A stretch of 64,000 bases of DNA from a virus, in the IMG/VR virus record IMGVR_UViG_3300045581_000900, positions 32,001-96,000 of that record. One strand, written 5' to 3'. A model generated the notes under the pieces. It did no database searches. It was not told the origin of the DNA and saw only the letters and a program-made list of their open reading frames with translations. Made by a program: the position numbers and the translations under genes. Below are positions 2,369 to 47,998 of the stretch, in pieces; the stretch's first letter is position 1; each line of letters starts with the position of its first letter.

Positions 2369-2382
2369 AGGCCTCCATGCCT
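2369..2382 (-). promoter_or_regulatory. RBS hairpin with AUGGAG hexaloop (CsrA/RsmA-type site)
   Basis: AGGC-ATGGAG-GCCT directly upstream of the sheath ATG. Confidence 0.6.
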
Positions 2383-2459
2383 CAGTTATTTGTGTGCGGG
2401 GTCAGTGCGTTCGAGTAGTATACACAACCACTCGTGCAACAAAAAAACACCTCGTTAAT

Positions 2460-3170
2460 TTAACCTGACAACAAATCTGATGCCTTGAAGACAATCCGCT
2501 TAAGACGCGGTGCGAGGGGCTGAAGCGACCAAGCTTCTTCGGCCACATACGCGACGGTGACGGGGACGGCATATCCCTGCGTCGCCTCTTGTACTTCTCC
2601 AACACCTCCGACCTCAGACACATAGAACTTGAAGAAGTTCATCTGCTCCCTGATCATTGGCGAGAAAAGGATTAAAAACTTAACAACCTCCGTTGCTAAA
2701 AATTCTGTTTCGGCTCCGTTCTGCGACAGGCAAAAAAGTGTATGGCTGCCCTCCCAGAACCCCGAGTAACTAACTTCTCCAGTATAGTAGTTCGAAACCG
2801 CTCTGTCACCAATTACTTTAGAATTCCACTGCCAACTGTTTCTTTTAATGAGCACAGCCGGCCGCTTGTCCGCTGTATTCGGTGCCCAGCGTGTAATACT
2901 TTCTATCAAAATGCCGCCCGGATTCAAACCACTATCTGACTCCCGCCATCCCCCGATCTCTTTTACGTGCCGGCGGACTTTGGGGTCTTCAATATTTTGT
3001 GGGTCCGAAAAGTGACCAATTAATAGTTGCCGCAAAAAGCCGGTCATTACATGGGGCCGCATGCCGTAAGAGCAGAGCGAGCTTACCTTTTCGACGCGGT
3101 TTTCTGTGGTACTGCCGTCTGGAAATTCGCCCTCCAGATGATCGTCATTGGGATTCGGGCAATTCGTCAT
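2460..3170 (-). CDS. Putative tail terminator/completion protein
   Basis: 236 aa, directly upstream of the sheath; RPAVLIKR and beta-rich C-terminus. Assignment mainly from synteny. Confidence 0.45.
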   Translation of the reverse strand: MTNCPNPNDDHLEGEFPDGSTTENRVEKVSSLCSYGMRPHVMTGFLRQLLIGHFSDPQNIEDPKVRRHVKEIGGWRESDSGLNPGGILIESITRWAPNTADKRPAVLIKRNSWQWNSKVIGDRAVSNYYTGEVSYSGFWEGSHTLFCLSQNGAETEFLATEVVKFLILFSPMIREQMNFFKFYVSEVGGVGEVQEATQGYAVPVTVAYVAEEAWSLQPLAPRLKRIVFKASDLLSG

Positions 3171-3317
3171 CTGTCTGGTCCTCTGTTTCCGGCCAAAATT
3201 TTACGCCGGCTTTTAACGGGTTTTTCTTGTCCGGCTTAAATAAACTGATTTTCGGCAACATTTCGATCTTCTTGCCGTACAGCGATATTTTCTTTCCGGG
3301 AAATTGCGGTGCCGGTG

Positions 3318-4628
3318 TCATATCCGCCAGAACTCCTCGTCTGGGTCGCCGGCAGGCTTTACGTCGTAAACTACGCCGCTTTCTGGGGTACTAAGAATTT
3401 TATCGTCTTCTGTCTTGAAGAATGACGGGTCACCTTCGGCGTCCGTCTCGCCGAGCGGGAATTGCGGCACATATGTCGGCACTAAGTCTTCTTCTGGCAC
3501 GGTTACAGTCACGGATTTGGTGTCCGGCCCATATTCCCCCGCCTTTTCAAACAGAATAACGTAGTCGCCGGGATCGAGTTTGATAGATCGGGTCCAGCGG
3601 CCGTTCACGCGGGTCGTCGTCTTCGCGACGGCCAAATTACGGTTAACGTTTACGCCGTTTGCGTCAAAGACCGCCTTCCGAAAAATATACACGTCTGCTC
3701 CCACAACACCGCAGCCGTCGGTGAGTGTGTAGGCCAGTTCGTCTAAACCGCCGTAGTCTTGGTCGACCGGTATGTCGCCGCAGCCAGCCATCGGAAGCGT
3801 GGGCCCGGTTCTGACCGACGGCTCGCCACCGATCTCTACTGCATAAATACTGTTGCTGAACGGCATCAGGCCCATACGCACCTGATAGATGACGGGCACG
3901 CCGCGGAGGGCCGCAGCGACCTGAATGCTCTCAACCACCCAGCGTTCGTCCGACGAGCCGTTCACCCAAATGTCATCTTTATTTAATCCGGGGAAGCCAA
4001 TGACTCTGGCTTCGACATACGGGTTTTCGCGGGTAGTGCCTTTCGGCTCTCCGACATCGCTCTGCTCGTTTTGCGGCGACAGGTCCCAGCATTGCATCGG
4101 CTGGGCAGGGTGATATCCCACCTCGAAACCCGTGCCATTACAGACCGGGCAGTTGGCGTCAGTGACTTCGCTCGACATTTCGTCGCGGCAGCGGGGGCAT
4201 GGAACGCCGTACCGCATTGGTTTGATTAAATAGCCGGGTATCGAGACCAGCCGATGCCGCAGTTGTTCTTTGCGGATAATTTCGCGGGACAGCACCCAGT
4301 CGCGTTCTGTTAACTCGCCGAAGACGTTGGCGGCCTGTGAGATGTATACATTCTGCGGCGTGGTGAGCTTGACGCGATAATGCGTCATTAACGTGTAGCC
4401 GGCCTCACGCCACGCCGGGTCTAAAGCGAAATATCCATTCGTGACAGGCTGGCCGACGTCGACCCAGTCAGTCGCGTCCCGAAGCCCCGTCCGGCCAAAT
4501 TGAAGCTGGAAAACGTAGGGGCCGGGCTCTTTAAACAGTTTCTCTAACTGCCACCAGACGCGGGAAACGCCGCGTACCATGTGGTCTACCGATACACGAC
4601 GAAATGGGAAAATACGTGCTTGGCTCAT
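3318..4628 (-). CDS. Putative neck/head-closure protein with Zn finger
   Basis: 436 aa; CPRC...CPVCNGTG motif; lies in the head-tail junction region. Confidence 0.45.
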   Translation of the reverse strand: MSQARIFPFRRVSVDHMVRGVSRVWWQLEKLFKEPGPYVFQLQFGRTGLRDATDWVDVGQPVTNGYFALDPAWREAGYTLMTHYRVKLTTPQNVYISQAANVFGELTERDWVLSREIIRKEQLRHRLVSIPGYLIKPMRYGVPCPRCRDEMSSEVTDANCPVCNGTGFEVGYHPAQPMQCWDLSPQNEQSDVGEPKGTTRENPYVEARVIGFPGLNKDDIWVNGSSDERWVVESIQVAAALRGVPVIYQVRMGLMPFSNSIYAVEIGGEPSVRTGPTLPMAGCGDIPVDQDYGGLDELAYTLTDGCGVVGADVYIFRKAVFDANGVNVNRNLAVAKTTTRVNGRWTRSIKLDPGDYVILFEKAGEYGPDTKSVTVTVPEEDLVPTYVPQFPLGETDAEGDPSFFKTEDDKILSTPESGVVYDVKPAGDPDEEFWRI

Positions 4629-4650
4629 GGCTTGATTATAGCGGGCGGCT

Positions 4651-4697
4651 GATAGCTAAAAAAAAAACGCTTACGCGTGCGGAGCCGTCGCCTCCGC
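4651..4697 (-). terminator. Terminator with conserved T-run-AGCTATC tail
   Basis: Hairpin(s) followed by T10-AGCTATC on the minus strand. Confidence 0.6.
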
Positions 4698-4717
4698 TGC
4701 CTACAAATTGTCAATGC

Positions 4718-5014: not shown

Positions 5015-5110
5015 TATTGCCCTCCTTAAGGCAAAGTCTTTTACCCAAAGACTCTGGGGAGTACTGCTAGCCGACGATACATATCGCCGGAATGCTAGGT
5101 TCCTCATATG

Positions 5111-5138
5111 ATATACCCTGTTTTTGTCGGTTATTTAG
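5111..5138 (-). promoter_or_regulatory. Phage promoter-like motif CTAAATAA-N13-GGTATAT
   Basis: One of six copies with an identical 13-nt spacer. Confidence 0.75.
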
Positions 5139-5147
5139 AGCCGCTCG

Positions 5148-5182
5148 AATAGCTAAAAAAAGCCCCCAATGGTCTGGGGGCT
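5148..5182 (-). terminator. Intrinsic terminator with T7-AGCTAT tail
   Basis: AGCCCCCA-loop-TGGGGGCT hairpin then T-run and AGCTATT. Confidence 0.8.
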
Positions 5183-5776
5183 TGAGTGAAATGTGGGCCG
5201 GTCGGGAAGGCTAGCTTCTTCCCGACCGGCCATCCCCCGTTAACACCTGATTGTCACACACAATCAGTTCACTGTGTTACGGGCTCGTTGTTTACCGGCC
5301 GTGACGGCAACACCACAACGTCGGTCGCCCTAGGGCTGTGGACAGGGGGTACAACGAGAAAACATGCTCGCACAGGATTGGGCCATGCGAGCGTGGCGTA
5401 AATTTAGGCGGCACCCAGATTTACAGTCTCCGAACAATCCCATCAGAGTTTCGGCAACCTACGATCTGGGCAGAAAACAGTTTGTTACTTTCAAAGAACT
5501 TACCGGCGTTTCGGTTTCCCGACGTCCCGGTATTCGGACTCGATTTCACAATAAGGGTGCTGCTGCCAACCACCCCGAGGCTGCCTGTGCCGACAAGACA
5601 CAGGCTTTTTGTCCAAGGGCTTCACCTACGAAAGCCTTTGTTCCGTTCGGACCAGTACCGCCTAAAGCGACGAGCCCCCAGAGCGACGACGGAACAAGCG
5701 TCGCTCCAAGGGCGTATTAAACGTATTCATAGTTAGGGAAAGGGCATCTTCGACCTCCTTTCAGGAGCCGCCTACG
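5183..5776 (-). ncRNA. Candidate large structured ncRNA (~600 nt)
   Basis: No minus-strand ORF; long-range stems 5403-5414/5655-5666 and 5281-5288/5670-5677; 14-bp hairpin 5196-5231; many local hairpins; GAAA tetraloops on the minus strand. Confidence 0.6.
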
Positions 5777-7300: not shown

Positions 7301-7371
7301 TGCCAACTCCTTTCTCGTGGCGTTAATAAAAGGGGCCAGATTCCCGCCACAGAATCTGGCCCCTGTTTAAC

Positions 7372-8237: not shown

Positions 8238-8265
8238 ATATGCCGCAATTTGGCCGATTATTTAG
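8238..8265 (-). promoter_or_regulatory. Phage promoter-like motif CTAAATAA-N13-GGCATAT
   Basis: Exact consensus, upstream of the MoxR gene. Confidence 0.75.
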
Positions 8266-8273
8266 CCGCGGCT

Positions 8274-8976: not shown

Positions 8977-9004
8977 ATATGCCAGCCTTCAGCCCCCTAT
9001 TTAG
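8977..9004 (-). promoter_or_regulatory. Phage promoter-like motif CTAAATAG-N13-GGCATAT
   Basis: Consensus with the same spacer. Confidence 0.7.
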
Positions 9005-9060: not shown

Positions 9061-10050
9061 TTAATACCGAATGCGTATGGCGTCGGTGTAGGCACTGTAC
9101 TTGTAGTTCGACCCAACCTCGCCGTAGCAGCTTTCGAGGTTAATACTGGCTTTCGTCGCCCGCACCCACTCCCGATATGCCTGCCACCGAGTCTGGCCGG
9201 CACGCTCGTAGCTGCCCTCTTTGTTCTGGTCGTCTACCGCAATACCGCCGGCCTGATACGAAAGCTGGTTGCGGCGGAACTGCTCGGCCACCATTAAGAA
9301 CAGGTTGGCACAGATGCCTTCAAGCCAATGATATCTAAACGGGAAGTTCTGGGTGTTGTAGTTACGGCCCAGCGGCGGTGGCACCTCATTCCAGTACATA
9401 ACCGGCCGGGCGATAGCGAGGGCAATCTCCGCGTCGTCGAACATGAGGTTTTCCAGCAAATAGCTTTCGCCGGGAGACGAGTCGCGGAGGTGGAGCCTGA
9501 TTTCAGCGATACTGGGCGGACCACCGTTGCGGCCGTCATTGCCCAGTGTGCCTCGGTTAATAATCAAATAAAACGTGTTCGAGAAGATGATGCACGGCTG
9601 GTCGGCTTCTTCCGCCGGCACATTGATCAGGGCCATCTCGGCGTAATAGATGCCGGGGATGCCGACCATGTTTTTAGTCAGATTAACGCTGACACGGCCT
9701 TCTGCGGCGTCTGTCACCGTGGCGTCGACCTGTTGGACGGGCTTGGAGTTGCCCAGCGAGATTTGCTCCTTGAGCCGCAGCACGACCTTATACGGCAACT
9801 CGTCGCACGCAGACATGTTTACGGGCACGCCGTCGCGGTCCACCATCTGCCAGTCAATCGTGGCACACTGGCCCTGCCCGATCGAAATAGCCTTCATACG
9901 GCCGAGTAGCGGCTGCCCGTTCTGCTCGGAAACCGGGGCCGTAATAACGTTTTGGCCGGCACAGGCTACAGGCGTTAAAACCTGCTCCGTGTTGCGATTG
10001 TCGCAGCAGGGCACGAGCGGGTGGGACGTCGGGGTCGCGATGACAGCCAT
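9061..10050 (-). CDS. Putative head-tail adaptor with N-terminal Ig/BppU-like domain
   Basis: C-terminal helical region (DDAEIALAI...WNEVPP...LSYQAGGIAVDD) resembles adaptor proteins; follows the capsid genes. Confidence 0.45.
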   Translation of the reverse strand: MAVIATPTSHPLVPCCDNRNTEQVLTPVACAGQNVITAPVSEQNGQPLLGRMKAISIGQGQCATIDWQMVDRDGVPVNMSACDELPYKVVLRLKEQISLGNSKPVQQVDATVTDAAEGRVSVNLTKNMVGIPGIYYAEMALINVPAEEADQPCIIFSNTFYLIINRGTLGNDGRNGGPPSIAEIRLHLRDSSPGESYLLENLMFDDAEIALAIARPVMYWNEVPPPLGRNYNTQNFPFRYHWLEGICANLFLMVAEQFRRNQLSYQAGGIAVDDQNKEGSYERAGQTRWQAYREWVRATKASINLESCYGEVGSNYKYSAYTDAIRIRY

Positions 10051-10139
10051 GTGTGTGCTCCGTTTTTATCAGTATACAAACAGAAAGGGCTGACCGTTAA
10101 ACGGCCAGCCCTTCCGCGTTTCAGACAGTCAAAGTTGAA

Positions 10140-10544
10140 TCACGTGCCGGCCGGGCCAGTAGCACCCGTAGCACCCGTAGCACCCGTGGCACCAGCACTG
10201 ACGGCAAAGCCACCGCCGCCGGCACCGTCCCACGAGGGAGTCGACGTGCCGAGTTGGCTCGCCGAATTCATCGCAAGCTCCTTGGTGACGCTGCCAGTCT
10301 CGCTGAGCAGGTACACCGACGGAGACTTTACGATGTCGAGGAGGTTGTTAGTCAGGGCACGTTCCAGAGCCTTGAACTTACGCTGGCTGCGTTGAGCACC
10401 CAGCTTGGTCACAAGGTCGCCGGGCACGGTGTACGTGGCGTTGTTAGCCAGCGTTTTACCGTGGGTTCCCAGAAACCCAAACGCCATGGTTTTACCCGAG
10501 ACGTTTTTTACAGTCGTATAAAGATCAGAAGAAGTTGTGGGCAT
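10140..10544 (-). CDS. Small virion protein with collagen-like C-terminal GAT repeats
   Basis: GATGATGATGATGPAGT tail; downstream of the capsid gene. Confidence 0.55.
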   Translation of the reverse strand: MPTTSSDLYTTVKNVSGKTMAFGFLGTHGKTLANNATYTVPGDLVTKLGAQRSQRKFKALERALTNNLLDIVKSPSVYLLSETGSVTKELAMNSASQLGTSTPSWDGAGGGGFAVSAGATGATGATGATGPAGT

Positions 10545-10555
10545 TTTTTACTCCA

Positions 10556-10945
10556 TTACTCTGCGGATTGCATGGCCGCAGATGCCGCGGCTTGCAGTGT
10601 CAGTACAGCATTAGCGATTGCAGGTTGATCGGCGGCGAGAGCAGCCACGTCGCGAAACGTGGACTGCTTCTCAGCCTGTCCGCCAATCCCCGACGCCGCC
10701 AGCACCGCATCAAGCTGCTGATTTACAGCAGCGAGACCATTGTGCCGGGCTGCGGCGGTTTTCTCCTGCTCGGCCGTATAGAGCACATGGAGCTTTTGAG
10801 CAGCGGCCCACATTTCCGCGGCTTCGCCCTCAGTCGACGGCGAGATGCCGGCGGCAGCGAGCTTTTCGAAGAAATAGGGGGCAGCAAGTTGGGCCACAAC
10901 CGTGGCGTAAGCCTGCTCTGCTGCTTCCTTAATGTTATCAGCCAT
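10556..10945 (-). CDS. Ala-rich head-associated protein
   Basis: 129 aa; KEA, KLA, KTA, KQS motifs. Confidence 0.6.
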   Translation of the reverse strand: MADNIKEAAEQAYATVVAQLAAPYFFEKLAAAGISPSTEGEAAEMWAAAQKLHVLYTAEQEKTAAARHNGLAAVNQQLDAVLAASGIGGQAEKQSTFRDVAALAADQPAIANAVLTLQAAASAAMQSAE

Positions 10946-10973
10946 TTTTAGTGCTCCTTGTTATTTATACGGC

Positions 10974-11900
10974 TCAGACAAACGTTACCTTAGCGAGACC
11001 GTTCGTGTGACCGAACGAGCCGCCTTGCGTGTTATAGGCGAAGTACTCAAGCATGTAGGCCTCACGACGGATATACATCGTGGTGGGCTCAAGCTCGTAG
11101 TTCTTGCCGATGAACTTCGGCGAGGCGAACATGTACAACACGTCGTTCGGGACGAGGTTCCGCTTGATCGTGACGATCCAGCGGCAGTTGAGGAAGTTGG
11201 TCTCCGCCCAACCGTTCTTGATGATGTCCTGCGAGAAGTCACCACCCATCTCGTCGCGACCGAACTTGAGGAGTTCCTTGATCGTGATGTTATTCACGAG
11301 GCAGGTCTCAACCTCAAAGTGGCTGGGAGTCGAGGGCATAACCTTCAGGGCATCAACAATCGTCTCGCGGGTGATACCGCCCGAGATCGTGACGTTCTGC
11401 GGAACGCCCGAAAGCGGGTTGTTGGTGTCAACCGTACCGACAGCGGCGTCCATCGCGGTGATGAACTTCGAGTCCTCTTCGGCGAGCATGTCCTTGATCA
11501 TGTTGTCGCTGAGCACCTGACGGATGTCGATGACATACGTGCGGAGTTCGTCGACGTCCTTCACAGCACGGGGCGACACGATCCGGTCAAACATGACGCG
11601 GTAACGCGGGCCACGGATGTAGAAGTTGATCGGGAGCGTCGCAAACGGAAGCGACACAGCCGCCGGGGAATCGGGCTCCTTGTCGACCACCTTCACCGGC
11701 TTGTCCGTGTCAACCTGACGATCGAGTTCGTCGTTGGTGATGGTCAGCGGCGGGATGATCCGACGGTAGAACCCGTCTTCACGCATCTTGGTACGCGTGA
11801 AGTCGTTAACCGCATCAATGGCCTGCTTCTGCATGCCGGGAGTGTCAAGCTGCTCAAAGAGCGTTTCATTGAGCAACTGGATTTCTTGCTGAGTGGGCAT
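10974..11900 (-). CDS. Major capsid protein (HK97-like, probable)
   Basis: ~308 aa from ATG 11900; strong codon bias; order protease-scaffold-decoration-MCP; F.RRIIPP and DML.EED..FI segments typical of large-phage MCPs. Confidence 0.75.
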   Translation of the reverse strand: MPTQQEIQLLNETLFEQLDTPGMQKQAIDAVNDFTRTKMREDGFYRRIIPPLTITNDELDRQVDTDKPVKVVDKEPDSPAAVSLPFATLPINFYIRGPRYRVMFDRIVSPRAVKDVDELRTYVIDIRQVLSDNMIKDMLAEEDSKFITAMDAAVGTVDTNNPLSGVPQNVTISGGITRETIVDALKVMPSTPSHFEVETCLVNNITIKELLKFGRDEMGGDFSQDIIKNGWAETNFLNCRWIVTIKRNLVPNDVLYMFASPKFIGKNYELEPTTMYIRREAYMLEYFAYNTQGGSFGHTNGLAKVTFV

Positions 11901-11904
11901 TTTA

Positions 11905-11920
11905 AAGACCTCCATGTCTT
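11905..11920 (-). promoter_or_regulatory. RBS hairpin with AUGGAG hexaloop
   Basis: AAGAC-ATGGAG-GTCTT upstream of the MCP ATG. Confidence 0.65.
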
Positions 11921-11935
11921 CTGTTAGGGATTAAT

Positions 11936-12493
11936 TCACGGTGTCCAGTCGGTTGCACCCGGCAGCCAGACGCACCAAAACGAAAGGGCCTGAATACCAT
12001 TGTGGTTCGTTGTGGCACCACTGGACACCACGCCCACAACCGGGGTTTCATACTGCACGACGCTGTCGTTCGTCAGCACACCGTCCGTCGAAGCCGGGCT
12101 GGCCGTCGTGGTAGCGGTGAGCAGATCGCCCGGCACGTAGTCCTGCTCGGCGTCGAACTCCGTGGTGGAGATTTCGTAGCCGCCAGTTGCAACGAGACCC
12201 GACAGCTTGCCGGTCGGGGCGACAGCGAGGTGCATGAACTTACCACCGGCAGTTGTGCCGGGGTTAGCGACGTCCGCGTCGGTGCTGCCGTTGAGCAGGA
12301 AGATCGCTACGTTCGTCTTGGAGACGCCCGGAACGAAATCGCCGTTCGCGTCAACGTGAACAACCCGCCCACGCTTTACGTCGAAGTCGATGCTGGGCGA
12401 CAGCTTGGCACTGTAGTCCAGCGAAGCCATATCGAACCAGCCCTTCTTAACGTCAAGGCCGTGTTCAAACATCAGATCAGGAGCGTTAGCCAT
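11936..12493 (-). CDS. Putative capsid decoration/cement protein
   Basis: 185 aa beta-rich (YEISTTEFD..Y.PGDLLTA), directly upstream of the MCP. Confidence 0.55.
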   Translation of the reverse strand: MANAPDLMFEHGLDVKKGWFDMASLDYSAKLSPSIDFDVKRGRVVHVDANGDFVPGVSKTNVAIFLLNGSTDADVANPGTTAGGKFMHLAVAPTGKLSGLVATGGYEISTTEFDAEQDYVPGDLLTATTTASPASTDGVLTNDSVVQYETPVVGVVSSGATTNHNGIQALSFWCVWLPGATDWTP

Positions 12494-12495
12494 TT

Positions 12496-12513
12496 TTAGA
12501 CCTCCATGTCTAA
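12496..12513 (-). promoter_or_regulatory. RBS hairpin with AUGGAG hexaloop
   Basis: TTAGAC-ATGGAG-GTCTAA upstream of ATG 12493. Confidence 0.65.
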
Positions 12514-23412: not shown

Positions 23413-23637
23413 TTAGTTTTTTGGCGGCGGAGGAAGTTCATTCACTGTCGGGGCCGGCGTGGTAACGCCGGCCATTTTTAACACCGTAGCAAAGTCATTG
23501 TCGCCGACAGCGGAATACACAATCCCCTCTGCCACGTGAGTTGCGACAAAGATCGGGTTCTTTAGGTCGTCTTCAATGACAACCGTATGAGCCTTCGTCT
23601 CTGCCGGAATTAAATTATGCTGCGTTTTAACCAGCAT
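23413..23637 (-). CDS. Small hypothetical protein between the RNAP genes
   Basis: 74 aa, overlaps the upstream stop. Confidence 0.6.
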   Translation of the reverse strand: MLVKTQHNLIPAETKAHTVVIEDDLKNPIFVATHVAEGIVYSAVGDNDFATVLKMAGVTTPAPTVNELPPPPKN

Positions 23638-24343
23638 GATTCGTCAAACTCCGGCACAGGGCGGCGACGGCACTTGCTTTCGTTTGAAGATCGAACGTTT
23701 CTGGCGTCGACGGGGTTGAAGACACACTGGGATCAATCGGCCGCCCGATAGAGCGGGCAGCGTGCGTATCTACCGCGTCCCACCAGTTGGCCATCTTCGG
23801 GGCACCGGCGTCGGGCGGCATAGGAGCACCGCCAGCCGCGGCCGGATCACCGCCCGGCGGAGCCGCAGGCGGAGGAGCCATTGGACCGCCGGGAAGGGCG
23901 GTTTCCGCCGGCGGAGCACCGGTTGTGCCGGGCGGCAGCACCAGCGATTCAGGAGCAACCTGCACGCCCATCGCGTTCATGATCGCCGTAAGTTGCTGCT
24001 GCATGTTGTAAAGCCGGTAATCGAGCATTTGCATCATCTGCTCAGGCTTAAGTTTCTGACCGCCTGCGGCACCACCAGCGGGAGCCGGGGCTGGCTGTGC
24101 GGGCGGCAGAGCACCCAGCATCGACGGGTCCATCATTCCCGGCGGAACAGCACCGCCAGCCGCCGCAGGGTCGCCAGCCGGAGGAGCCGCACCCATCGCT
24201 GCCTGCATCGGGTCAGCGGGCGGAACAGCACCTTGAGCCGCGGCAGCCGGGTCCATACCGCCACCGGGAGGCACCACAGCCGACTTTTCAAACAGAGCCC
24301 GCTTGGCGAGCGATAACAATTCGGGATTTACCGTATAGGACAT
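23627..24343 (-). CDS. Pro/Ala/Gly-rich protein with central coiled coil
   Basis: 238 aa; EKSA and PKMA flank the low-complexity core. Confidence 0.65.
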   Translation of the reverse strand: MSYTVNPELLSLAKRALFEKSAVVPPGGGMDPAAAAQGAVPPADPMQAAMGAAPPAGDPAAAGGAVPPGMMDPSMLGALPPAQPAPAPAGGAAGGQKLKPEQMMQMLDYRLYNMQQQLTAIMNAMGVQVAPESLVLPPGTTGAPPAETALPGGPMAPPPAAPPGGDPAAAGGAPMPPDAGAPKMANWWDAVDTHAARSIGRPIDPSVSSTPSTPETFDLQTKASAVAALCRSLTNHAG

Positions 24344-24344: not shown

Positions 24345-24360
24345 ACTACCTCCGTGTAAT
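24345..24360 (-). promoter_or_regulatory. RBS hairpin with ACGGAG hexaloop
   Basis: ATTAC-ACGGAG-GTAGT next to ATG 24343. Confidence 0.6.
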
Positions 24361-30684: not shown

Positions 30685-31176
30685 TCACTCTCCCGGCAGA
30701 ATTAATTTTTTGGGGCCTGTGTTCGGCCCACCCATTGTAAAATCTGGGGCGACATGTTTTCCAGTGTCTTTTCCGAGCGGAAGCATGCCGGGCAGGCGAG
30801 TTGAAAAATCAGCCGCACTCGCCAAAGAAATACGGCTTTTTCGGTTCGGGCGGTGCTTTGTAAACCACTCGTCGACCTTGGGGTCGTTGCGGTCGCCCTG
30901 CTCTTTGGCCTCGTTTGTGCAGGCGACCATGTCCTCAATCGCCTTGATAAGCTCGCTGCGGTCGGCCGAGAGCCAGACGGCCTTGCTGGGATTTTCAGCG
31001 GCAATCGAGCGGAGCCGGCGGGCTTCGTCGGACAGGGCCTGAGCCCGCAAGAGAAATTCTTTACGCGTTAAAACGTAAAACTCACCGGTATCTTCGTCAT
31101 GCAGGCAGACAAAACCGTTTTCGGCGTAAAACTTAAGCCCGCGGAACGTGTAACACTTGCCGGTGACCTTTTGCAT
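30685..31176 (-). CDS. Hypothetical protein
   Basis: 163 aa; start codon lies in TGC-AAGGAT-GCA hairpin. Confidence 0.7.
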   Translation of the reverse strand: MQKVTGKCYTFRGLKFYAENGFVCLHDEDTGEFYVLTRKEFLLRAQALSDEARRLRSIAAENPSKAVWLSADRSELIKAIEDMVACTNEAKEQGDRNDPKVDEWFTKHRPNRKSRISLASAADFSTRLPGMLPLGKDTGKHVAPDFTMGGPNTGPKKLILPGE

Positions 31177-31255
31177 CCTTGCACCTTTGTCGCATGTATC
31201 GGACCATAGAACGCGTAGGCACGTGTATATCAGCCGTTACGCGTTTCGGCAACGG

Positions 31256-31672: not shown

Positions 31673-32698
31673 TCAAATCTTACCCCGTGCCCCGTAGCTC
31701 TTCAGTTTTTTGGGCGGCCAGCCGTTCACGCCGGAGAACGCGATCATTGAGCGGTTCTTCATATCAGACCACTTTGACCAGAACGAGCCAACCGGAATGT
31801 CATAGTTGGTGCCGTAGATACGCGTCCCGCCGCGGTTCCATTCACCCCACGAATTTTGAATTAACACCAGCGGCTCACCATAAAGTTTAATAATCTCGGG
31901 GCGGTCGTCGACTCCGAGATAGGCAAGGGCGTGGGCCCAGCCCTTCGATGTCCGCTTAGATACGCCATTTTCATCTCTGACGTCAGACCACGATTCGCCG
32001 CCACAGCTACTAACACAGTAACCGTTGGCCAAGAAGTCGCGGAGTTGTTCAAAGCTCGTGACTTCCGTCGCGGTGCGGATTAAATGATTTTTGCCGATCT
32101 CAAGCCACGAGTCGGGCGGCGTTCGCGAGCCGTAAATACCGGCGTTGCGAGCACTGTACTTTGTGAGATCAACGCCGATCTCGTCGTACTTCTTTCGAAG
32201 CCACAGGCCGCTTTCTTTCAGCACGACCTGAGCCGCGGCCCCGCAACTCCATCCGTCCCCACCATGCCGACGCCAGTTGTAAATGGCTTCGGTGCTGAGC
32301 ACGCCGAAGGCGATGGCAACCTCGCTGACTTCAGGGGCACCTTCTAACTTGCCGCTGACCTCGTCGGGCTTGCCGCTGGTGATCTCGCAGCACATGGTGC
32401 CGAGACCGGCGTTTCGCGTCGACCAACTGACACAGTCGCCGCGGCCCTGACCGCCACCGGGTAAACAGCCGGGATACAAAGAAAGAATTTCAAGAACCGG
32501 AAGGCTTAACTTGCCCTTGCCGCTGTCTTCCAGCCCGAATGACTGGCAGGCCATCGCACCATCGGGAATACCGCCGCTGGAGCGGACAAAGTCCCACAGT
32601 TCTTCGTTGGCCCTGGGATCGGAGTACGCCCCGAGAAAACCACTCTCGTACGCTTTGACGACGTCAAAGACATCTGTGAAAAACAGTTCTTCAGCCAT
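31673..32698 (-). CDS. Papain-like (C1) cysteine peptidase
   Basis: Q..GDCVSW, WAHAL, IQNSWG catalytic motifs. Confidence 0.8.
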   Translation of the reverse strand: MAEELFFTDVFDVVKAYESGFLGAYSDPRANEELWDFVRSSGGIPDGAMACQSFGLEDSGKGKLSLPVLEILSLYPGCLPGGGQGRGDCVSWSTRNAGLGTMCCEITSGKPDEVSGKLEGAPEVSEVAIAFGVLSTEAIYNWRRHGGDGWSCGAAAQVVLKESGLWLRKKYDEIGVDLTKYSARNAGIYGSRTPPDSWLEIGKNHLIRTATEVTSFEQLRDFLANGYCVSSCGGESWSDVRDENGVSKRTSKGWAHALAYLGVDDRPEIIKLYGEPLVLIQNSWGEWNRGGTRIYGTNYDIPVGSFWSKWSDMKNRSMIAFSGVNGWPPKKLKSYGARGKI

Positions 32699-32709
32699 CG
32701 TCGTCCTCC

Positions 32710-33165
32710 TTAACGAGCCGACGCGATAATCGTGTCGCAGGCTTTGACGAGCTTGGCCTGTATCAGCGGCGTCACTGCGTTTACTACACTGGCGTCCGTA
32801 TCTTTGTCCTGCACGGCTTTATAGAACACAGCCTCGATCGCCTCGTCGAGTCCGGGGTACTTGCCCGGCGGCTCAATAGCAAGGGTCAGTGTTTCACCGT
32901 GCACTTCTTCCCACTTCTCTGTCGTGTTCACTCGCTTGCCGTTGTCTTTGTTCAAGACAGCCTTCAAGCCGCGGTACACGCTGACGATGCGAGCCTTGTC
33001 GGCGGCGGAGGCGTTCGCCAAGAGTTTCACGATTTCGGCGTCGGCAGGCACATTGACCTCGGGCGTCGACTCTGCCGGTTTTGAAAACGATGGCAGCGAA
33101 ACGCCGTTCGGGTACACAATGGCTACTGCCAGCACCAGCCCAGCAACCCATACAAGCTTCTTCAT
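32710..33165 (-). CDS. Secreted/membrane-anchored protein
   Basis: N-terminal signal/TM segment. Confidence 0.65.
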   Translation of the reverse strand: MKKLVWVAGLVLAVAIVYPNGVSLPSFSKPAESTPEVNVPADAEIVKLLANASAADKARIVSVYRGLKAVLNKDNGKRVNTTEKWEEVHGETLTLAIEPPGKYPGLDEAIEAVFYKAVQDKDTDASVVNAVTPLIQAKLVKACDTIIASAR

Positions 33166-35118: not shown

Positions 35119-36093
35119 TTAATTTCTATTAAACATTGCCGGCACGATTGCGTGCATCATACCACCCCAAAGTCCCATGTCTTGTAACTTTTGTTGGCCC
35201 AGCGGTGTTAAACCGGCCATTGCCGACAACGCTCGGCCCGCGATGTTTGCCGTCGCCAATCCGACGCCCGCAGACGCAATACCGCGAATCACGTCGACAG
35301 GCCGAATAATCGGAGAACGTTGGGCCGTGCTGATGCCTGTCATTAAGCCAGTTGTCGCTGCGGCGTAAGCCGGGGGCGTAAACTGGCTCCCACCAGTATA
35401 CATTCCGCGTTGTACATCTTGCCATGCCGCCTGATTAAATTGCGGCACGGACACCGTCGGAGCAAACAGACTCGCGTTATTAAATTGTGCGAAGCCGACT
35501 TTTTCGTCAGGGGCGGTCGTGGGCGTCGTGTTCGGCGTCACCCATGATTTCCAGAAGCCGATGTCTGGTCGCGTGCGGTAGGTGGCATAGGCGTTGTTTA
35601 AACCAATTAACCCGCCGCCAGCGAGGCCCATCAGGCCGAGATTCTTCCGCAGCCGACCACGCTCCAGATAGCGTTCTGGAAACAGGTTCTCTGCCAGTGC
35701 TCCCGCCCCGTAACCGACACCGCCAAGCATCAGCCCAGAGACGATCGCGTTGGATAACGGCGTCGGGCCGCCCAGCATTTTGTGGCCAAAATCGAACGCG
35801 TGACTGATGCCGGGAATCGCCGCAGATTTAATCAAAATTTCGCGGTCCCAGTCCGGCAGGGTTTCTCGGCTTCTGAGCACGACACAGCGACCATTATCGA
35901 CGGCCAGCTTGGAGAGCGGCTTCGGTCGGTAGAGCACGAGCACGTCGTCGACCGTGTCCCATGTGGCTGTGGTGCCGGCTAAGTCACCGGTCTGGGCAGC
36001 GATCTTGAAATACAGATGCTGCAGGTGCATGGCCTGCGGCAGCAATTCAGCGACGCGGTTTGGCACCTGCTGCCAGTCTTGAAGCGTGGTCAT
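35119..36093 (-). CDS. Gly-zipper virion cargo-like protein
   Basis: KIA/KLA/KSA motifs, Gly-rich helices. Confidence 0.6.
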   Translation of the reverse strand: MTTLQDWQQVPNRVAELLPQAMHLQHLYFKIAAQTGDLAGTTATWDTVDDVLVLYRPKPLSKLAVDNGRCVVLRSRETLPDWDREILIKSAAIPGISHAFDFGHKMLGGPTPLSNAIVSGLMLGGVGYGAGALAENLFPERYLERGRLRKNLGLMGLAGGGLIGLNNAYATYRTRPDIGFWKSWVTPNTTPTTAPDEKVGFAQFNNASLFAPTVSVPQFNQAAWQDVQRGMYTGGSQFTPPAYAAATTGLMTGISTAQRSPIIRPVDVIRGIASAGVGLATANIAGRALSAMAGLTPLGQQKLQDMGLWGGMMHAIVPAMFNRN

Positions 36094-37835
36094 TTCGGCC
36101 TCCCCAACGCCATGTTTAAAAACTGGTCGCCGTAGTTGTGAATGGCTTGTTCGGCGAAGTCGGGTTGCTCCATTTCGCCCCGCATGGCTTTCATGGCAAG
36201 TTGGTAGCGGTACTGCGGGCTTAACGCCGCCATGTACCGCTGATGATTCTGCCGAGCGTTGATCATGAAATCGCCGCGGCGTTTCACCTCCATCAACTGG
36301 TTCTGAATGTTTTCGAACACCGGCTTGTTGTAATCATATTTAATCGGCTGCCGCAGGCTGTACATGTTGCGAAGTTGATTCATATACACGTTCTCGGCCG
36401 CCTTCACGGTCGCCGGAATAGCCGTCGGGTCCATGTGCAGCCGAAAGTTCGTCGGCGTATGCGTGACACCCTTGTGGTACGGCTTCGGGTCGTCAATCCG
36501 CCAATCGTGCGGCGATTGTTCCATTAATCGCCGCAAAATCTGCGTCTTTTGTTCGTACTGTTTGTTGTCCGAGTGCTTTTTAGCCGCCAGCAGCTTTTGA
36601 ATGATGGCTTTATCAGCGGCAATAGCGGCTTTTTCTATTTCTTTGATTTTTTCGTAGTAGTGGGGGTCTTCGGACAGATGATCTTTGGCAATTTCTTTGG
36701 CGATTTGATCATTACTTGTGTGTTCGTGCTCATGCTTGGCTCCTTCGGCTAACGCGGCTGGAGAAAATTCCTGATCGGGTAAATTATCGGCTTCTCCGCC
36801 CGGTAACAGGTCTTTTTGTCCCGAGTGGGAAAGTTCGGCAGCCGCGGCTTTGTTAATAGCCGGAGCTAAGAGTTTTTTAATGTCCGGGCCCATGTAGTCG
36901 TCGCCTTCGGGCAGGCCGTGCGACAACGTAACCACTGCGTCAGAACCGACAGTGGCATTAAAGTTTCCGGGCTTGAGTTTGTGCTTCAGCAGTTCCAGAT
37001 AATGCTCGTGCTGCCAGCCTTCTCGCGGGTCGTTACCGAGCGGCCGAAACGCTGTCGGCCTAATCTTGACGCCGAGTTCTTCAAACATCTCCCGGGCGGC
37101 GGCTTGGGCCGGAGTTTCGCCCGCTTCGATGCCGCCGCCCATAAACCGCCGTTTGCCGATATTCTGCGGCCATTTTGAGTTGTTGAGCGTTTCCATCAAA
37201 TACTGGTTTTTATACGGCATTACGACGCGGACGCGGGGCTGCGGCTGATCGCTGGCCGCTTTTCTCACCTCGTTATCCTGCAGCACTTTCTTGCGGCGAA
37301 CAGCGACGGTGATGTGGAACTGATGGTCGCCGTTCATGAGCGGCGAGAGCCCGTAGCTCTTGCGTAACGCGGCCAGTTCAGGGCTGGAGACTTGAATGAC
37401 CCAGACTTTGCTGATACTGCCGGCCTTATTAATGCTTATTTCCTTCATGCTCCCCAGTCGATAGGAGAACATGTGGCCGCGTTCGTTGATCTTGTCAACA
37501 CCGATCTGCTCCACCTCGTCAGCCTTCATGACCGAGATGTGGGCGTTGAGCACGTCTGCAGCAACGTTCGGCACGCTCCACACGCCACTCGTCGGCAATT
37601 CGGCTCCGGGAACCGACATGGCGTCGAATACGCCGCGGACAAGGGCGTTCGGCACGGAGAGCAGCAGCCAGCCGCTTTTGGCTAAATACAGCCGGCCGAC
37701 AAGCGGGTAGTTCGTCGCGGCCTGCTTGTTGCCGCGGTACAGCCAGCCAAACGCGTGGCCGGCTTTATATTCGGGCGTTTCGGCGTAAAGCTCGGGTCGC
37801 CACGTTCGTTGATCTAAGACTGAGAAGCCATCCAT
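36090..37835 (-). CDS. Multidomain polyprotein: 2H-phosphoesterase-like + Nudix + DUF5661-like + two further domains
   Basis: HISV...HITV pair; GGGIEAGETPAQAAAREMFEELG Nudix box; EHEHT..IAKEIAKDHLSEDPHYY; domains separated by KQA/KAA. Confidence 0.75.
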   Translation of the reverse strand: MDGFSVLDQRTWRPELYAETPEYKAGHAFGWLYRGNKQAATNYPLVGRLYLAKSGWLLLSVPNALVRGVFDAMSVPGAELPTSGVWSVPNVAADVLNAHISVMKADEVEQIGVDKINERGHMFSYRLGSMKEISINKAGSISKVWVIQVSSPELAALRKSYGLSPLMNGDHQFHITVAVRRKKVLQDNEVRKAASDQPQPRVRVVMPYKNQYLMETLNNSKWPQNIGKRRFMGGGIEAGETPAQAAAREMFEELGVKIRPTAFRPLGNDPREGWQHEHYLELLKHKLKPGNFNATVGSDAVVTLSHGLPEGDDYMGPDIKKLLAPAINKAAAAELSHSGQKDLLPGGEADNLPDQEFSPAALAEGAKHEHEHTSNDQIAKEIAKDHLSEDPHYYEKIKEIEKAAIAADKAIIQKLLAAKKHSDNKQYEQKTQILRRLMEQSPHDWRIDDPKPYHKGVTHTPTNFRLHMDPTAIPATVKAAENVYMNQLRNMYSLRQPIKYDYNKPVFENIQNQLMEVKRRGDFMINARQNHQRYMAALSPQYRYQLAMKAMRGEMEQPDFAEQAIHNYGDQFLNMALGRPK

Positions 37836-37995
37836 GGCAGCCCCGTATGTTTACTTCTGGGCCGCCGCCGCTGTCGTGGAATAACTTTCTGGGGCCGCGG
37901 CGGCCGCTGGACCACACACAGTAATCGCGTGTGCAGACAAAAACATCGCCCAGCCACATAGGGCCGCCATAATCCACGCCATCAGGCTCATCTGG

Positions 37996-40679: not shown

Positions 40680-40931
40680 TTATACAGCAGCGTCCCCTTT
40701 ATACTCGTCCATTACGTCAAAACCGGCCCGCACGTCAAAAATACTCGGGGCGTGCTGGGCCGCTTCGTGCAGGTCCCACAATTGCGGATAGTGCTTTAAC
40801 AGCCGGCGGGCTTCGGCTCTGACGGCGGCCGGAATCTTCTTAAAACCACTCCCGGACGGGCTGGCCAGCTTGATTAAAAACTTGGCCGTGGCCATCACCG
40901 CTCGGGAGCGTTCGTACGGGAGCGTCATCAC
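40680..40931 (-). CDS. Small conserved phage protein (BPSL0761-like)
   Basis: [11 protein letters not shown]...VRAEARRLLKHYP; family name recalled, not searched. Confidence 0.6.
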   Translation of the reverse strand: MMTLPYERSRAVMATAKFLIKLASPSGSGFKKIPAAVRAEARRLLKHYPQLWDLHEAAQHAPSIFDVRAGFDVMDEYKGDAAV

Positions 40932-41257
40932 GCCGTCGCCTTATTCTTGCTGTTCTTGTGCGTGTCGTACTCTTCCTTGACGCACCAGTTCCACATGTGC
41001 GGCGGCTGCTTCGGCCACGCCGGAAATGGCGACGGGGCTGGGGTCCACGGGTTTTGAATATTCTTTTGCGGCGGCTGTTTCTCGTGGGCGTCCTTCACGA
41101 CCTGAATCGCGGCCTCGGCCATGTCGAGCCGGGCGACCAGCACCAGAAGCTGGTCTTCAAGTTCGCTGATCCGGGCGTGCAGCGACGGTGTCTTGGGCTT
41201 GGCCGGCTTTTTAATACTTTTCACGGGCTTCTTGTTATTCACAATCTTCTTTTTCAT
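40928..41257 (-). CDS. Hypothetical protein
   Basis: Start MKKKIV at 41257, ATGA overlaps. Confidence 0.55.
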
Positions 41258-42147: not shown

Positions 42148-42220
42148 CTGCCCGGGTAGGACTCGAACCTACAACCCCAGCATTAACAGTGCCGTGCTCT
42201 GCCAGTTGAGCTACCGGGCA
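42148..42220 (-). tRNA. trnN: tRNA-Asn(GTT), CCA not encoded
   Basis: TGCCCGG acceptor; AGCTCAACTGGCAGAGC D-arm; CGGCA-CTGTTAA-TGCTG anticodon arm; GTAGG-TTCGAGT-CCTAC T-arm. Confidence 0.95.
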
Positions 42221-42376: not shown

Positions 42377-42982
42377 TTACCGCCCCCAACTGTCGCCAGC
42401 AGCGGCATGGGCACTGCGGTACTGCAGGGCCAGCGTGTCAGCCAGAATCCGCCGCATCTTCTCGGCGTCCTCGTAGCTGTCCTGAAGCTGGTCTTCAAAG
42501 AACAGCGTGAGGTACGGAGCCACTGTCGGATGGGCGGACGACAGCCGCTCCAGTTGCGTCAGCCGGCACGCGTAGTTCTTAACAACTTCTTCCTCTAGCT
42601 GAACTGCGTGCCAGAGGGCGTCTTCGACCTTGGTGAATACCGGAAACGACTTGCCCGACTGGTTGGGAAGGGCAAAGTTCAGGCCCAGAAGCCGGTCCAA
42701 GAACTGCTGCACGTGCTCCAGTTCACTCTTGGCGGCATTCGTAAAGAACTCTTTGTACTCTTCCGCGTGCAAACCCGTGATATGGCTAGCGTGATAGAGA
42801 TAAAACTGGAGGTGCGTCCACTCGTTCTGCAGGTCGTCGTTCATCAACTGCAGAAACTGCGGCAGCGTGATCACCGGGTCAACAGGTGTAAACACCATCT
42901 CGACCGGGGAGCCCTGACCACCGCGGCAGCAACTCGAACTACCCGTCGGGCCAATCGGACCGGTTTCGCCTGTATGCGACAT
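42377..42982 (-). CDS. Ferritin/bacterioferritin-like protein
   Basis: NDDLQNE...Y..HA, ELEH, LEEEVVKNY four-helix diiron pattern; start 42982. Confidence 0.75.
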   Translation of the reverse strand: MSHTGETGPIGPTGSSSCCRGGQGSPVEMVFTPVDPVITLPQFLQLMNDDLQNEWTHLQFYLYHASHITGLHAEEYKEFFTNAAKSELEHVQQFLDRLLGLNFALPNQSGKSFPVFTKVEDALWHAVQLEEEVVKNYACRLTQLERLSSAHPTVAPYLTLFFEDQLQDSYEDAEKMRRILADTLALQYRSAHAAAGDSWGR

Positions 42983-42987
42983 TATCT

Positions 42988-43003
42988 TTCTCCTCCATGA
43001 GAA
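42988..43003 (-). promoter_or_regulatory. RBS hairpin with AUGGAG hexaloop
   Basis: TTCTC-ATGGAG-GAGAA. Confidence 0.6.
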
Positions 43004-43054
43004 TTGCGGGCAGTGCGTATTTGTACGGCAGGGGCTAACCACCGTCAATGGGAA

Positions 43055-43966: not shown

Positions 43967-44021
43967 GCCGGCGTTATACCCGCCCGGCCAAAAGAAGTAA
44001 ACGGGTTTTACCGCCCGTCGA

Positions 44022-46534: not shown

Positions 46535-46536
46535 CG

Positions 46537-46725
46537 TCAGGCCTTCTTGTTGTGTTTATTCGCCGGGTCACCGTGCACATCACGATACGTCTTGCCATCA
46601 TGCGGGGCTCGCACGGTCGGCGTGACATCGCGGCTGGCGGCTTTCGTTTCCCACTCGATCTGCCGCACGCCGGTCAGGTCAATGGGAAGATTCTTGGGGT
46701 TCTTGAGATTGCGAAAGTGTTGCAT
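46537..46725 (-). CDS. Small hypothetical protein
   Basis: 62 aa, AAGGA RBS, fills operon gap. Confidence 0.5.
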   Translation of the reverse strand: MQHFRNLKNPKNLPIDLTGVRQIEWETKAASRDVTPTVRAPHDGKTYRDVHGDPANKHNKKA

Positions 46726-46736
46726 GCGAGATTCCT

Positions 46737-47132
46737 TTAACGAGCGAAGCCGCCCGGTTGACCGTCTAAAAATGTCTTGGTCTGCGTGTTGAACTTCCGG
46801 CCGTTGTCCGTCGTGATGATGTGCGGCGGGTCCTGCTGGCCCGTAGCATTGTTAAACGCAGTCGAGGTCGCCGAGAGCGGAGCGGACACAGGACCGGCAC
46901 CCGTTTGATTCGCCATCGCCGACGAACCCGGAAGCATGCCCATCGCCCGCTGGAACAGCGACGGCGAGGTCGACGCCGCAGGGGCAGGGGCCGGTGCTGG
47001 GGCTGGGGCGGGAGTCGGCGTGGGTCGCGGCAGCTTAGGAGGCGTCGCCGGCGTGGCGAGCGTTTTCATCATGCTGCCGCTCCGTGGCGTGACAGCCGCA
47101 AGTTGATTTCCAAATTGAAACGCAGACGGCAT
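46737..47132 (-). CDS. Pro-rich protein with SAFQFG N-terminal tag
   Basis: MPSAFQFGNQLA. Confidence 0.6.
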   Translation of the reverse strand: MPSAFQFGNQLAAVTPRSGSMMKTLATPATPPKLPRPTPTPAPAPAPAPAPAASTSPSLFQRAMGMLPGSSAMANQTGAGPVSAPLSATSTAFNNATGQQDPPHIITTDNGRKFNTQTKTFLDGQPGGFAR

Positions 47133-47147
47133 GGTTGAGTCCTTTAC

Positions 47148-47450
47148 TTAAAAAGCTTCTGTGTCCGAGTCAGTGTATTTAAGTGAACGATTGGTAACTG
47201 AGAGTTCCGTTTTGTGACACCGCCCGCCCTCGCAGCAGGTTTCGTTAATCGTGCCGCAGCGGGTGCACACCAGCTTGCCTCGAATATCCATTAACTCACC
47301 GCGACAGATATGGCATTGCGTTGCTGTGGACATTATTGTAGCAAACTCCGTACTGCCCCGAACGTGCCGCGGTAAATAAGGGCAGTTTACACATCCGTTG
47401 CCGCAGCATCGCCCGTGCTGGAGTAACGTCTCCCGGGACAGCGGTTTCAC
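47148..47450 (-). CDS. Cys-rich protein (CCGNGCxNCPY plus Zn ribbon)
   Basis: Resembles DUF5522-type motif (recalled); may be two small genes in one frame. Confidence 0.5.
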   Translation of the reverse strand: MKPLSRETLLQHGRCCGNGCVNCPYLPRHVRGSTEFATIMSTATQCHICRGELMDIRGKLVCTRCGTINETCCEGGRCHKTELSVTNRSLKYTDSDTEAF

Positions 47451-47794
47451 ATGTGGGCGTGGGTGAACCGGGCTTCATATGCGGCGTAAATCTCCGCATA
47501 GGCCACGCCCCACGCGGCGTCATGGGCCAGTTTATTAAACGCCTCGTCGTCGATGGCGTTGTCGAGGCGGTGGTTCCACGCCCGGGCATGGGCCCACTCG
47601 TGGATCAACACGTCCATCGAACGGCTTTCATCCAGACTCTTGTCGATCTGGATGTGGAACTTCTTACCCTGCTTCCAACAGCGGCCGTCGAGTTTTGTCA
47701 GCTTAACCCGCCGCACGCTGACCGGAAATGCCGCGGGGCACTCCGTTTTCAGCATCTTGAGGAGAGACTGGTACTGTCGAAAGCGGGTCGCCAT
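47447..47794 (-). CDS. Small HExxH zincin-like protein
   Basis: LIHEWAH...AHDAAWG; start 47794 under TGTC-ACGGAG-GACG hairpin. Confidence 0.7.
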   Translation of the reverse strand: MATRFRQYQSLLKMLKTECPAAFPVSVRRVKLTKLDGRCWKQGKKFHIQIDKSLDESRSMDVLIHEWAHARAWNHRLDNAIDDEAFNKLAHDAAWGVAYAEIYAAYEARFTHAHM

Positions 47795-47998
47795 GGCCGT
47801 CCTCCGTGACATGAAGCAGGCCAGCATCCTGCCGACCAGTCACCGATTGTATCAGGCCCTGAAAGAACTGGCGAACGCTTCTGAGCGAAAGCCGTGCCAC
47901 TGCATCTGCCGCCGCTTTCAAGCCGCTTTCAAAGCTGCACAGGGCGGCCCACGGGCACCCAACCAACAGCGGCGGACACCCCAAAATTCACGAGCAAA

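Follow-up and report, generated by a model that had tools for sequence, protein, structure and literature searches.

Hairpins of the CsrA/RsmA type at the ribosome-binding sites of a jumbo-phage family

The literature on CsrA sites describes ANGGAN loops and a motif, RUACARGGAUGU, from systematic evolution of ligands by exponential enrichment (SELEX) (PMC6849547; PMC3791407), and the complex of RsmE with hcnA gave the RsmE/CsrA consensus (A/U)CANGGANG(U/A) (PMC6849547). Genes for CsrA are also known from phages, among them Pseudomonas F116-like phages, Vibrio phages, Burkholderia phage DC1 and E. coli phage PTXU04 (PMC7366521, PMC8450108). The csrA gene of PTXU04 is semi-essential for plaque size, its role in the phage life cycle being stated as untested in that work (PMC11879866). 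Here we analyse hairpins with GGA-containing hexaloops at the ribosome-binding sites (RBS) of genes in a 64,000-nucleotide stretch of viral DNA, hereafter the window, which comprises bases 32001-96000 of a 111,939-bp IMG/VR virus contig (G000). We consider it probable, at roughly 0.68, that these hairpins are operators of a CsrA/Rsm-type post-transcriptional regulon that a jumbo-phage family runs on its own messenger RNAs (mRNAs).

Genes were called with our own codon-model gene caller, which favours starts that bear a Shine-Dalgarno sequence (SD); it placed 112 of the 116 genes of the contig on the minus strand. The main criterion for a hairpin was a stem of at least 4 bp (G-U allowed) closing an NNGGAN hexaloop, with the GGA at positions -20 to -3. 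An earlier note, made from the letters of the window, had listed eight hairpins with the SD in the loop and three related sites near or over start codons. All 11 were found where it had placed them, on the minus strand, as follows.

2368..2383, minus strand: hairpin of the tail-sheath-like gene, GAGGC-AUGGAG-GCCUU, with the SD in the hexaloop, 8 nt before the start
2364, minus strand: start of the tail-sheath-like gene (1178 aa), which continues past the low end of the window
11904..11921, minus strand: hairpin of the major capsid protein gene (10974-11900), GAAGAC-AUGGAG-GUCUUU
12496..12513, minus strand: hairpin of a 185-aa gene (11936-12493) directly upstream of the capsid gene, UUAGAC-AUGGAG-GUCUAA
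21388..21403, minus strand: hairpin of a 797-aa gene (18991-21384, GTG start), GCCGC-AUGGAG-GUGGC, with one G-U pair
24345..24360, minus strand: hairpin of a 238-aa gene (23627-24343), AUUAC-ACGGAG-GUAGU
32701..32716, minus strand: hairpin of a 341-aa gene (31673-32698), UCGUU-AAGGAG-GACGA, with a closing U-G pair
42988..43003, minus strand: hairpin of a 201-aa ferritin-like gene (42377-42982), UUCUC-AUGGAG-GAGAA
47798..47811, minus strand: hairpin of a 115-aa SprT-like gene (47447-47794), UGUC-ACGGAG-GACG
37827..37838, minus strand: 3-bp hairpin of a 581-aa gene (36090-37835), GCC-AUGGAU-GGC, the start codon forming loop positions 1-3
31172..31183, minus strand: 3-bp hairpin of a 163-aa gene (30685-31176), UGC-AAGGAU-GCA, the loop end and the closing G forming the start codon
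41258..41269, minus strand: 3-bp hairpin directly before a 109-aa gene (40928-41257), GGU-AUGGAU-GCC

In the SD-type sites the loop ends 5-10 nt upstream of the start. The three 3-bp sites are present but not individually significant, about four such stems being expected by chance. Hairpins are also borne by three early-region genes outside the window.

Over the whole contig a hairpin was found in 11 of the 73 genes that have GGA at the required distance, and 8 of these 11 lie inside the window. Permutation of the 3' arms among genes gave an expectation of 1.76, and shuffling of the 5' arm one of 1.55; none of 20,000 trials reached 11 under either null model. Since both models preserve the SD and the chosen positions, this is the genome-wide scan against SD-preserving shuffles on which the earlier proposal had been made to depend, and it left the hairpins far above expectation (11 versus about 1.8). 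Among genes with a GGAGG SD the hairpin is present in 10 of 23, with 1.7 expected. The hairpin rate is 13.6% of the RBS GGA sites (11/81), compared with 0.6% of other coding-strand GGA and 0.5% of antisense GGA. A register scan revealed enrichment solely at NN-GGA-N, that is, with two bases 5' and one base 3' of the GGA; the same hairpins recur along the diagonal after closing pairs are dropped. As a mere string, the 8-mer CANGGAGG shows no over-representation in the window (12 matches, 8.4 expected); the signal resides in pairing and position.

The contig is about 55% complete according to CheckV and has a GC content of 56-60%. Its capsid protein has 65 IMG/VR relatives at 54-99% identity, many of them on contigs of 190-235 kb and some with terminal repeats, so that the contig represents roughly one half of a jumbo phage of ~200 kb. 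By capsid, the isolates nearest to it are Vibrio phage D69 and Salmonella phage Arash, at an identity of only 27-28%, and a megablast search among isolate phages with the capsid region gave no match. The relatives used below are IMG/VR phages coded G001-G012 and G015, with L-numbers for loci in them; the genes of G005 (69% GC) were called with a codon model seeded by homology.

Across relatives, the stem at the capsid site reads GAAGAC/GUCUUU, AGAAC/GUUCU, GGAAC/GUUCC, GGCAC/GUGCU or CGAUC/GAUCG around an invariant loop, CAYGGAGG. Among 39 distinct sequences of this site 87.7% of the cells are paired, compared with 68% after shuffling and at most 64% with a slid partner, and the 32 double-change cells were matched in 0 of 500 shuffles. 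The site of the 185-aa gene, represented by 42 sequences, gave 81.4% paired cells and 31 double-change cells, a number that likewise no shuffle out of 500 matched. The stem of the 797-aa gene varies from GCCGC/GUGGC in the window to CAGC/GCUG in G003, with UUCC-ACGGAU-GGAA in G005 and UUGUUCC-AUGGAU-GGAGCA at L195, and compensated variants of the site of a 725-aa gene just outside the window are GGC/GCC, GGUC/GGCC and GAGGGGC/GUCCUUU. G-U pairs are present, which places the structure on the sense RNA. That the stems differ and stay paired around a largely fixed loop, as had been noticed within the window, is therefore borne out by covariation at the capsid and 185-aa genes. In terms of sequence evolution, the hairpins are shown to be under selection.

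Other sites are kept to varying degrees. The sheath hairpin recurs in G001 (loop ACGGAG), in G003 (3 bp) and in G005 (AUUGGC/GCCAGU, 6 bp). That of the 238-aa gene reads UGUUUAC-AUGGAG-GUAAAUA in G001 and UUAAAC/GUUUA in others, and it is lost in G003. Ferritin-like orthologues keep the hairpin with unrelated stems (GAA/UUU in G001, ACUG/CGGU in G003). The hairpin of the 341-aa gene has no counterpart at the G001 and G003 orthologues and is specific to the window's lineage; that of the SprT-like gene is not kept at the same position in G001 or G003 and is lineage-specific too. As for the 3-bp sites, the one at 37827 shows a single compensatory change in G003 (GCC/GGC to GCU-AUGGAC-AGC), which is weak by itself, the one at 31172 has 2 bp in G001, is absent in G003 and falls within chance, and the gene at 41258 has no orthologue among the relatives compared, its site being within chance as well.

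As free RNA the hairpins are only weakly stable (-1.0 to -6.6 kcal/mol); their mean predicted occupancy is 0.11, and their 60-nt contexts are no more stable than shuffles (z-scores near 0). In minimum-free-energy folds of these contexts, the full hexaloop hairpin is the predicted dominant fold at 42988 only, and a shortened 3-bp form at 32701. Because the covariation is strong, we read this result as a sign of weak, probably protein-stabilised hairpins and not of missing structure. Such weakness would be more in keeping with a protein site of the induced-fit kind than with a structure that stands by itself.

The geometry of the sites was pooled from 88 RBS hairpins of five genomes. An A occupies loop position 1 in 93% of the hairpins, compared with 41% of the RBS GGA sites that lack a hairpin. 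Position 2 is unconstrained (A 43%, C 34%, U 15%, G 8%). At position 6 the G of the SD predominates, with C, U and A also found, and 66% of the loops (58/88) are closed by a C-G pair. The capsid site reads ACAUGGAGGU and agrees with the extended consensus, in which the C-G closure is flanked by A-U/U-A. The start-codon class fits the SELEX motif: at the 725-aa gene (GGAC-AAGGAU-GUCC, AUG in the loop), at 31172 and at 37827 the AUG lies within the loop or the closing pair. The assignment to the CsrA/RsmA type, which had been made from the window, is thus supported by agreement in the size of the loop, the register of the GGA, the A in first place, the variability of positions 2 and 6, the closing C-G pair and the overlap with SD or start codon, and these hairpins can be regarded as predicted CsrA/RsmA-type sites.

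A further likeness was found in G005, where a second hairpin lies 22-51 nt upstream of the RBS hairpin in 11 genes, about 1.55 such pairs being expected. Among these 11 are the capsid gene and the counterparts of the sheath and 725-aa genes. The loops of the upstream hairpins (ACGGAC, AAGGAC, AGGGAU, AAGGAA) match an SD poorly, and no start codon lies behind them. Elsewhere two hairpin pairs were found in G001 and one in G003. The arrangement in G005 corresponds to the known layout for bridging by CsrA: Mercante and colleagues (2009) are said to have found that two CsrA sites about 10-63 nt apart are bridged by one dimer.

A csrA gene was identified above the curated Pfam cut-off (PF02599) in 10 of 10 relatives that are at least 90% complete and have at least 65% capsid identity, namely G001-G005, G009, G010 (two copies), G011, G012 and G015. 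Ten phage CsrA sequences are invariant at M1, L2, V3, L4 and R6 and in the R-x-E of the last strand. The G011 protein (67 aa, as in G001) has matches in RsmE (2JPP, 1.9e-16) and in E. coli CsrA (1.5e-15); the closest solved structure for the G001 protein is that of Bacillus CsrA (1T3O). In G005, G010a and G012 the RBS of csrA itself is within a hexaloop hairpin, which recalls E. coli, where CsrA autoregulates. Like the dual hairpins of G005, this feature is difficult to account for unless a protein binds the GGA loops. In G005 the product of csrA (L066:1165-1653, minus strand) is 163 aa long and comprises two CsrA domains on a single polypeptide, of which the second is interrupted by an insertion. 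This protein is possibly a single-chain "dimer", and it occurs in the same lineage as the dual-hairpin leaders; single-sequence AlphaFold2 prediction gave no usable model of it (predicted local distance difference test score, pLDDT, 33).

Other features of the csrA genes and their surroundings were recorded. G010 has two csrA genes on opposite strands (L106 and L108; 78.9 and 72.5 bits). In the window's clade the CsrA proteins of G001, G002 and G015 (L070, L068, L112) carry a C-terminal G-L-E-R motif after the RNA-binding core, which is missing from high-GC lineages and could be a partner-binding tail. Directly before csrA in G001 and G003, with only a few bases between, lies a conserved 223-aa gene that belongs to no known family (L070:1674-2345 and L067:1661-2332, both on the minus strand); it is a candidate for a partner or a co-regulated gene. 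A cluster of three hairpins at 76.1 kb of G011 was considered as a sponge RNA and rejected, the cluster not being GGA-rich and its first hairpin being terminator-like. By eye, the structured gap at 5108-5776 of the window held no obvious run of GGA hairpins.

The contig ends within a repeat-rich 1151-aa tail-fibre-like gene. In relatives csrA lies 8.4-11.1 kb downstream of the orthologue of G000:3314-4228, a position that would be 4-7 kb past the contig end, and all four of the relatives closest at this anchor gene share the layout. We infer a csrA gene for the window's phage, in the portion of the genome that the contig does not cover. No same-species contig spanning the csrA region was found, none exceeding 67% identity at the anchor gene. 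One and the same short repeat, from the 1151-aa tail-fibre-like protein of G001, is matched at either end of the contig (G000:1-3305 and 111677-111937, outside the window), so that the assembly is probably broken or mis-joined there, and this would account for the missing ~85 kb. In G001, the region that the contig lacks includes a transfer-messenger RNA gene (Rfam 125.6 bits; tag GASAPALAA) beside six transfer RNA (tRNA) genes (L076:7246-7764 and 9589-12286).

The co-occurrence of csrA and hairpins was assessed by counting RBS hairpins with stems of at least 4 bp in six relatives.

G001, csrA present: 15 observed, 2.7 expected
G003, csrA present: 11 observed, 2.4 expected
G011 (62% GC), csrA present: 23 observed, 4.4 expected
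G005 (69% GC), csrA present: 30 observed, 2.5 expected
G006, csrA absent: 3 observed, 3.8 expected
G007, csrA absent: 8 observed, 2.9 expected

The two genomes without csrA, 92% (G006) and 100% (G007) complete, have more SD sites than the others. Hairpins with A at loop position 1 number 0 among 208 RBS GGA sites in G006 and 2 among 247 in G007. Neither genome has a hairpin at five core orthologues, the sheath gene included, where csrA-bearing genomes have them. In G008, a third CsrA-less relative, there was no hairpin at the capsid and neighbour-gene sites, the only two checked.

Several points weigh against the view that the phages regulate their own mRNAs through CsrA. The association of csrA with the hairpins may rest on one evolutionary event, so that it is supportive rather than decisive; any other feature private to the CsrA-positive clade would co-occur equally. 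Not one RBS hairpin was observed in F116 and Vibrio 219E41.2, two unrelated phages with csrA, so that self-targeting would be special to the window's phage family and not automatic with csrA. The contig of the window has single sites and no dual-hairpin pair, unlike typical high-affinity CsrA targets, and in the window's clade csrA lacks a hairpin of its own. Searches found no cluster of three or more hairpins of the kind that a sponge RNA would form in the window's clade, no FliW (PF02623) in five complete relatives and, across the window and 120 kb of G001, no Rfam Csr/Rsm small RNA. Nor is there an obvious reason for repressing the most abundant virion proteins. Finally, no PF02599 match is present in the window's own 111.9-kb contig. 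The search for csrA and small RNAs to which the earlier note had pointed was thus successful for csrA in ten relatives but not in the contig itself, and gave no Csr/Rsm small RNA. The note had left the regulator as a host or phage CsrA; near-complete relatives encode a phage CsrA and the hairpins track csrA, while no csrA was found in the window's own contig, which ends before the expected position.

The mechanism we propose is as follows. A phage CsrA dimer would clamp the A-N-G-G-A-N hexaloop and the C-G closing pair; in one lineage the single-chain two-domain CsrA would act instead, and host CsrA may also take part. The loop would hold the GGAG of the SD or, in the second class, the AUG itself, and with either of them in the loop the bound protein would keep the 30S subunit off, thereby setting the timing or the dose of translation. 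Binding is expected to repress translation, the default for CsrA sites that overlap the SD, and repression would be relieved through titration by the flood of late mRNA or by an antagonist. We infer CsrA binding, repression and the mode of relief at these hairpins. A fully virus-autonomous circuit, in which the phage's own CsrA represses the capsid, sheath and core mRNAs until titration by late transcripts or a phage antagonist releases them in a threshold-like manner, has in our view slightly less than an even chance of being correct.

The core targets, which are conserved, would be the capsid, the 185-aa neighbour and the tail-sheath-like, 797-aa and 725-aa proteins, with lineage-specific targets added. 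The capsid label is supported by phrog_2522 and an annotated relative. For the sheath label, the C-terminal part of the G001 orthologue matches tail-sheath PHROGs (E ~2e-8), Ig-like insertions being present. No PHROGs or Pfam match was obtained for the 185-, 238-, 341-, 725- and 223-aa proteins, and the 797-aa target had no match in the protein atlas or by tblastn. The idea that the hairpins gate capsid and tail synthesis agrees with capsid and sheath being among the putative targets; specificity to capsid and tail was not borne out, since hairpins also precede the ferritin-like and SprT-like genes, early-region genes and the 238-aa gene. The genes flanking the latter we take, from an earlier reading of the sequence, to encode putative RNA polymerases. 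The ferritin-like target is a PF00210 gene, a possible parallel to E. coli, for which regulation of iron-storage genes by CsrA is reported (PMC6686035). A tRNA gene (42148-42220 of the window, minus strand; Rfam 66.3 bits) lies between the ferritin-like gene and the next cluster.

Could the sites be read by host CsrA only? The phage would then tie virion translation to the state of the host Csr system, or its late mRNAs would soak up host CsrA, with the phage csrA acting on host mRNAs, as proposed for other phages. The motif is that of a generic CsrA/RsmE site, the published view of phage csrA is one of host manipulation (PMC8450108; PMC11879866), and the csrA of the window's clade has no hairpin. 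Yet the hairpins track phage csrA across lineages of 56-69% GC, probably of different hosts, csrA itself bears the hairpin in three lineages, and F116 and Vibrio 219E41.2, which encode csrA and infect CsrA-bearing hosts, are without RBS hairpins. We therefore regard exclusive reading by the host protein as unlikely. Phage and host CsrA may both bind the sites.

Next in order, and quite improbable, is another phage RNA-binding protein or endoribonuclease private to the csrA clade, for which the hairpin might, for example, be a processing site before each cistron, by a logic comparable to that of T4 RegB at GGAG or of coat-protein operators. The hairpins do stand exactly at cistron boundaries, most genes of the phage family are without known function, and the co-occurrence with csrA is confounded by phylogeny. 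On this account, however, the match to a CsrA site in six features (hexaloop, GGA at positions 3-5, A1, free N2/N6, C-G closure and dual spacing) would be a coincidence, and no candidate protein was identified.

We also find it quite improbable that no trans factor is involved and that the hairpin simply displays the SD in its loop or tunes accessibility for highly expressed genes. Such a role would agree with the position of the sites on strong GGAGG SDs of abundant proteins, and loop display could plausibly shield the SD from longer-range pairing. It is at odds with the low occupancy and with contexts that fold no better than shuffles. Neither A1 nor C-G closure is necessary for display of an SD, and C-A-Y before GGAGG would add no complementarity to the usual 16S 3' end. 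Moreover, the upstream hairpins of G005 have non-SD loops with no start behind them, the second class loops the AUG and not the SD, and CsrA-less relatives with equally strong SDs are without hairpins.

An artefact of chance or composition in SD-rich leaders and start-codon calls, to which the unenriched 8-mer, the preference of our gene caller and the chance-level 3-bp sites might point, is scarcely credible for stems of at least 4 bp (though possible for 31172 and 41258) in view of null models that retain the SD and positions, the register and antisense controls, the recurrence of the signal in four relatives and its absence from two with more SD sites, and the covariation at orthologous sites.

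One other sequence class of the window was compared with the hairpins. The motif CTAAATA-N14-GGYATAT occurs in six exact copies, 0.01 being expected, on the coding strand before small genes, and looks like a phage-specific promoter class. The genes that follow these six copies were confirmed to be without the hairpin, as had been observed for those inspected before. The copies are:

5111-5138, minus strand: exact match to the motif
8238-8265, minus strand: exact match to the motif
8977-9004, minus strand: exact match to the motif
61327-61354, minus strand: exact match to the motif
62538-62565, minus strand: exact match to the motif
63761-63788, minus strand: exact match to the motif

If regulation of the phage's own mRNAs by CsrA is correct, it would provide a host-independent post-transcriptional timer or dose control of virion assembly in a jumbo phage. 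Were the circuit virus-autonomous, one lineage would have evolved further, to a single-chain two-domain CsrA and dual-hairpin leaders. CsrA is among the most thoroughly studied translational regulators of bacteria, and its phage copies had been taken to serve host manipulation; the cis-sites described here are on mRNAs of the phage itself, those for capsid and sheath included. As the sites keep compensatory changes across a family of 56-69% GC and vanish where csrA is absent, the regulon would be viral at both ends. This suggests a use for the csrA genes of many uncultured phages.

The hairpins can be compared with several known systems. With RsmE-hcnA and CsrA-glgC of Pseudomonas and E. coli (PDB 2JPP) they share GGA at hexaloop positions 3-5, A1, C-G closure and overlap with the SD or start, as well as a CsrA homologue with the same RNA-binding residues and, in one lineage, a second upstream site at 22-51 nt. 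They differ from these in that regulator and targets (capsid, sheath and others) would both belong to a phage, in the mostly single sites of the window's lineage and in that no sponge of the CsrB/RsmZ type was found. As in the CsrA-FliW-hag system of Bacillus subtilis, a putative CsrA site lies on the SD of a mass-produced, self-assembling structural protein; FliW was not found in the five complete relatives, and no sign was seen of the assembly state feeding back on translation. Among phages, 83 GenBank records match csrA. CsrA is proposed to act on the host in the other csrA phages, unlike here, where the sites are on the phage's own mRNAs, and the literature searched yielded no account of CsrA sites that a phage carries on its virion mRNAs. 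Translational operators of other kinds are well known in phages, in the form of the hairpin at the replicase start bound by the coat protein of MS2 and PP7, of the T4 RegA sites and of cleavage by T4 RegB at GGAG. The folds of these proteins are unrelated to that of CsrA, the motif is not shared, they have one or a few operators where 10-30 are found here, and RegB cuts early mRNAs. What the phages described here would have in common with MS2/PP7, RegA and RegB is the control of phage translation by a small phage protein, in our case a putative one, at the RNA of the initiation region.

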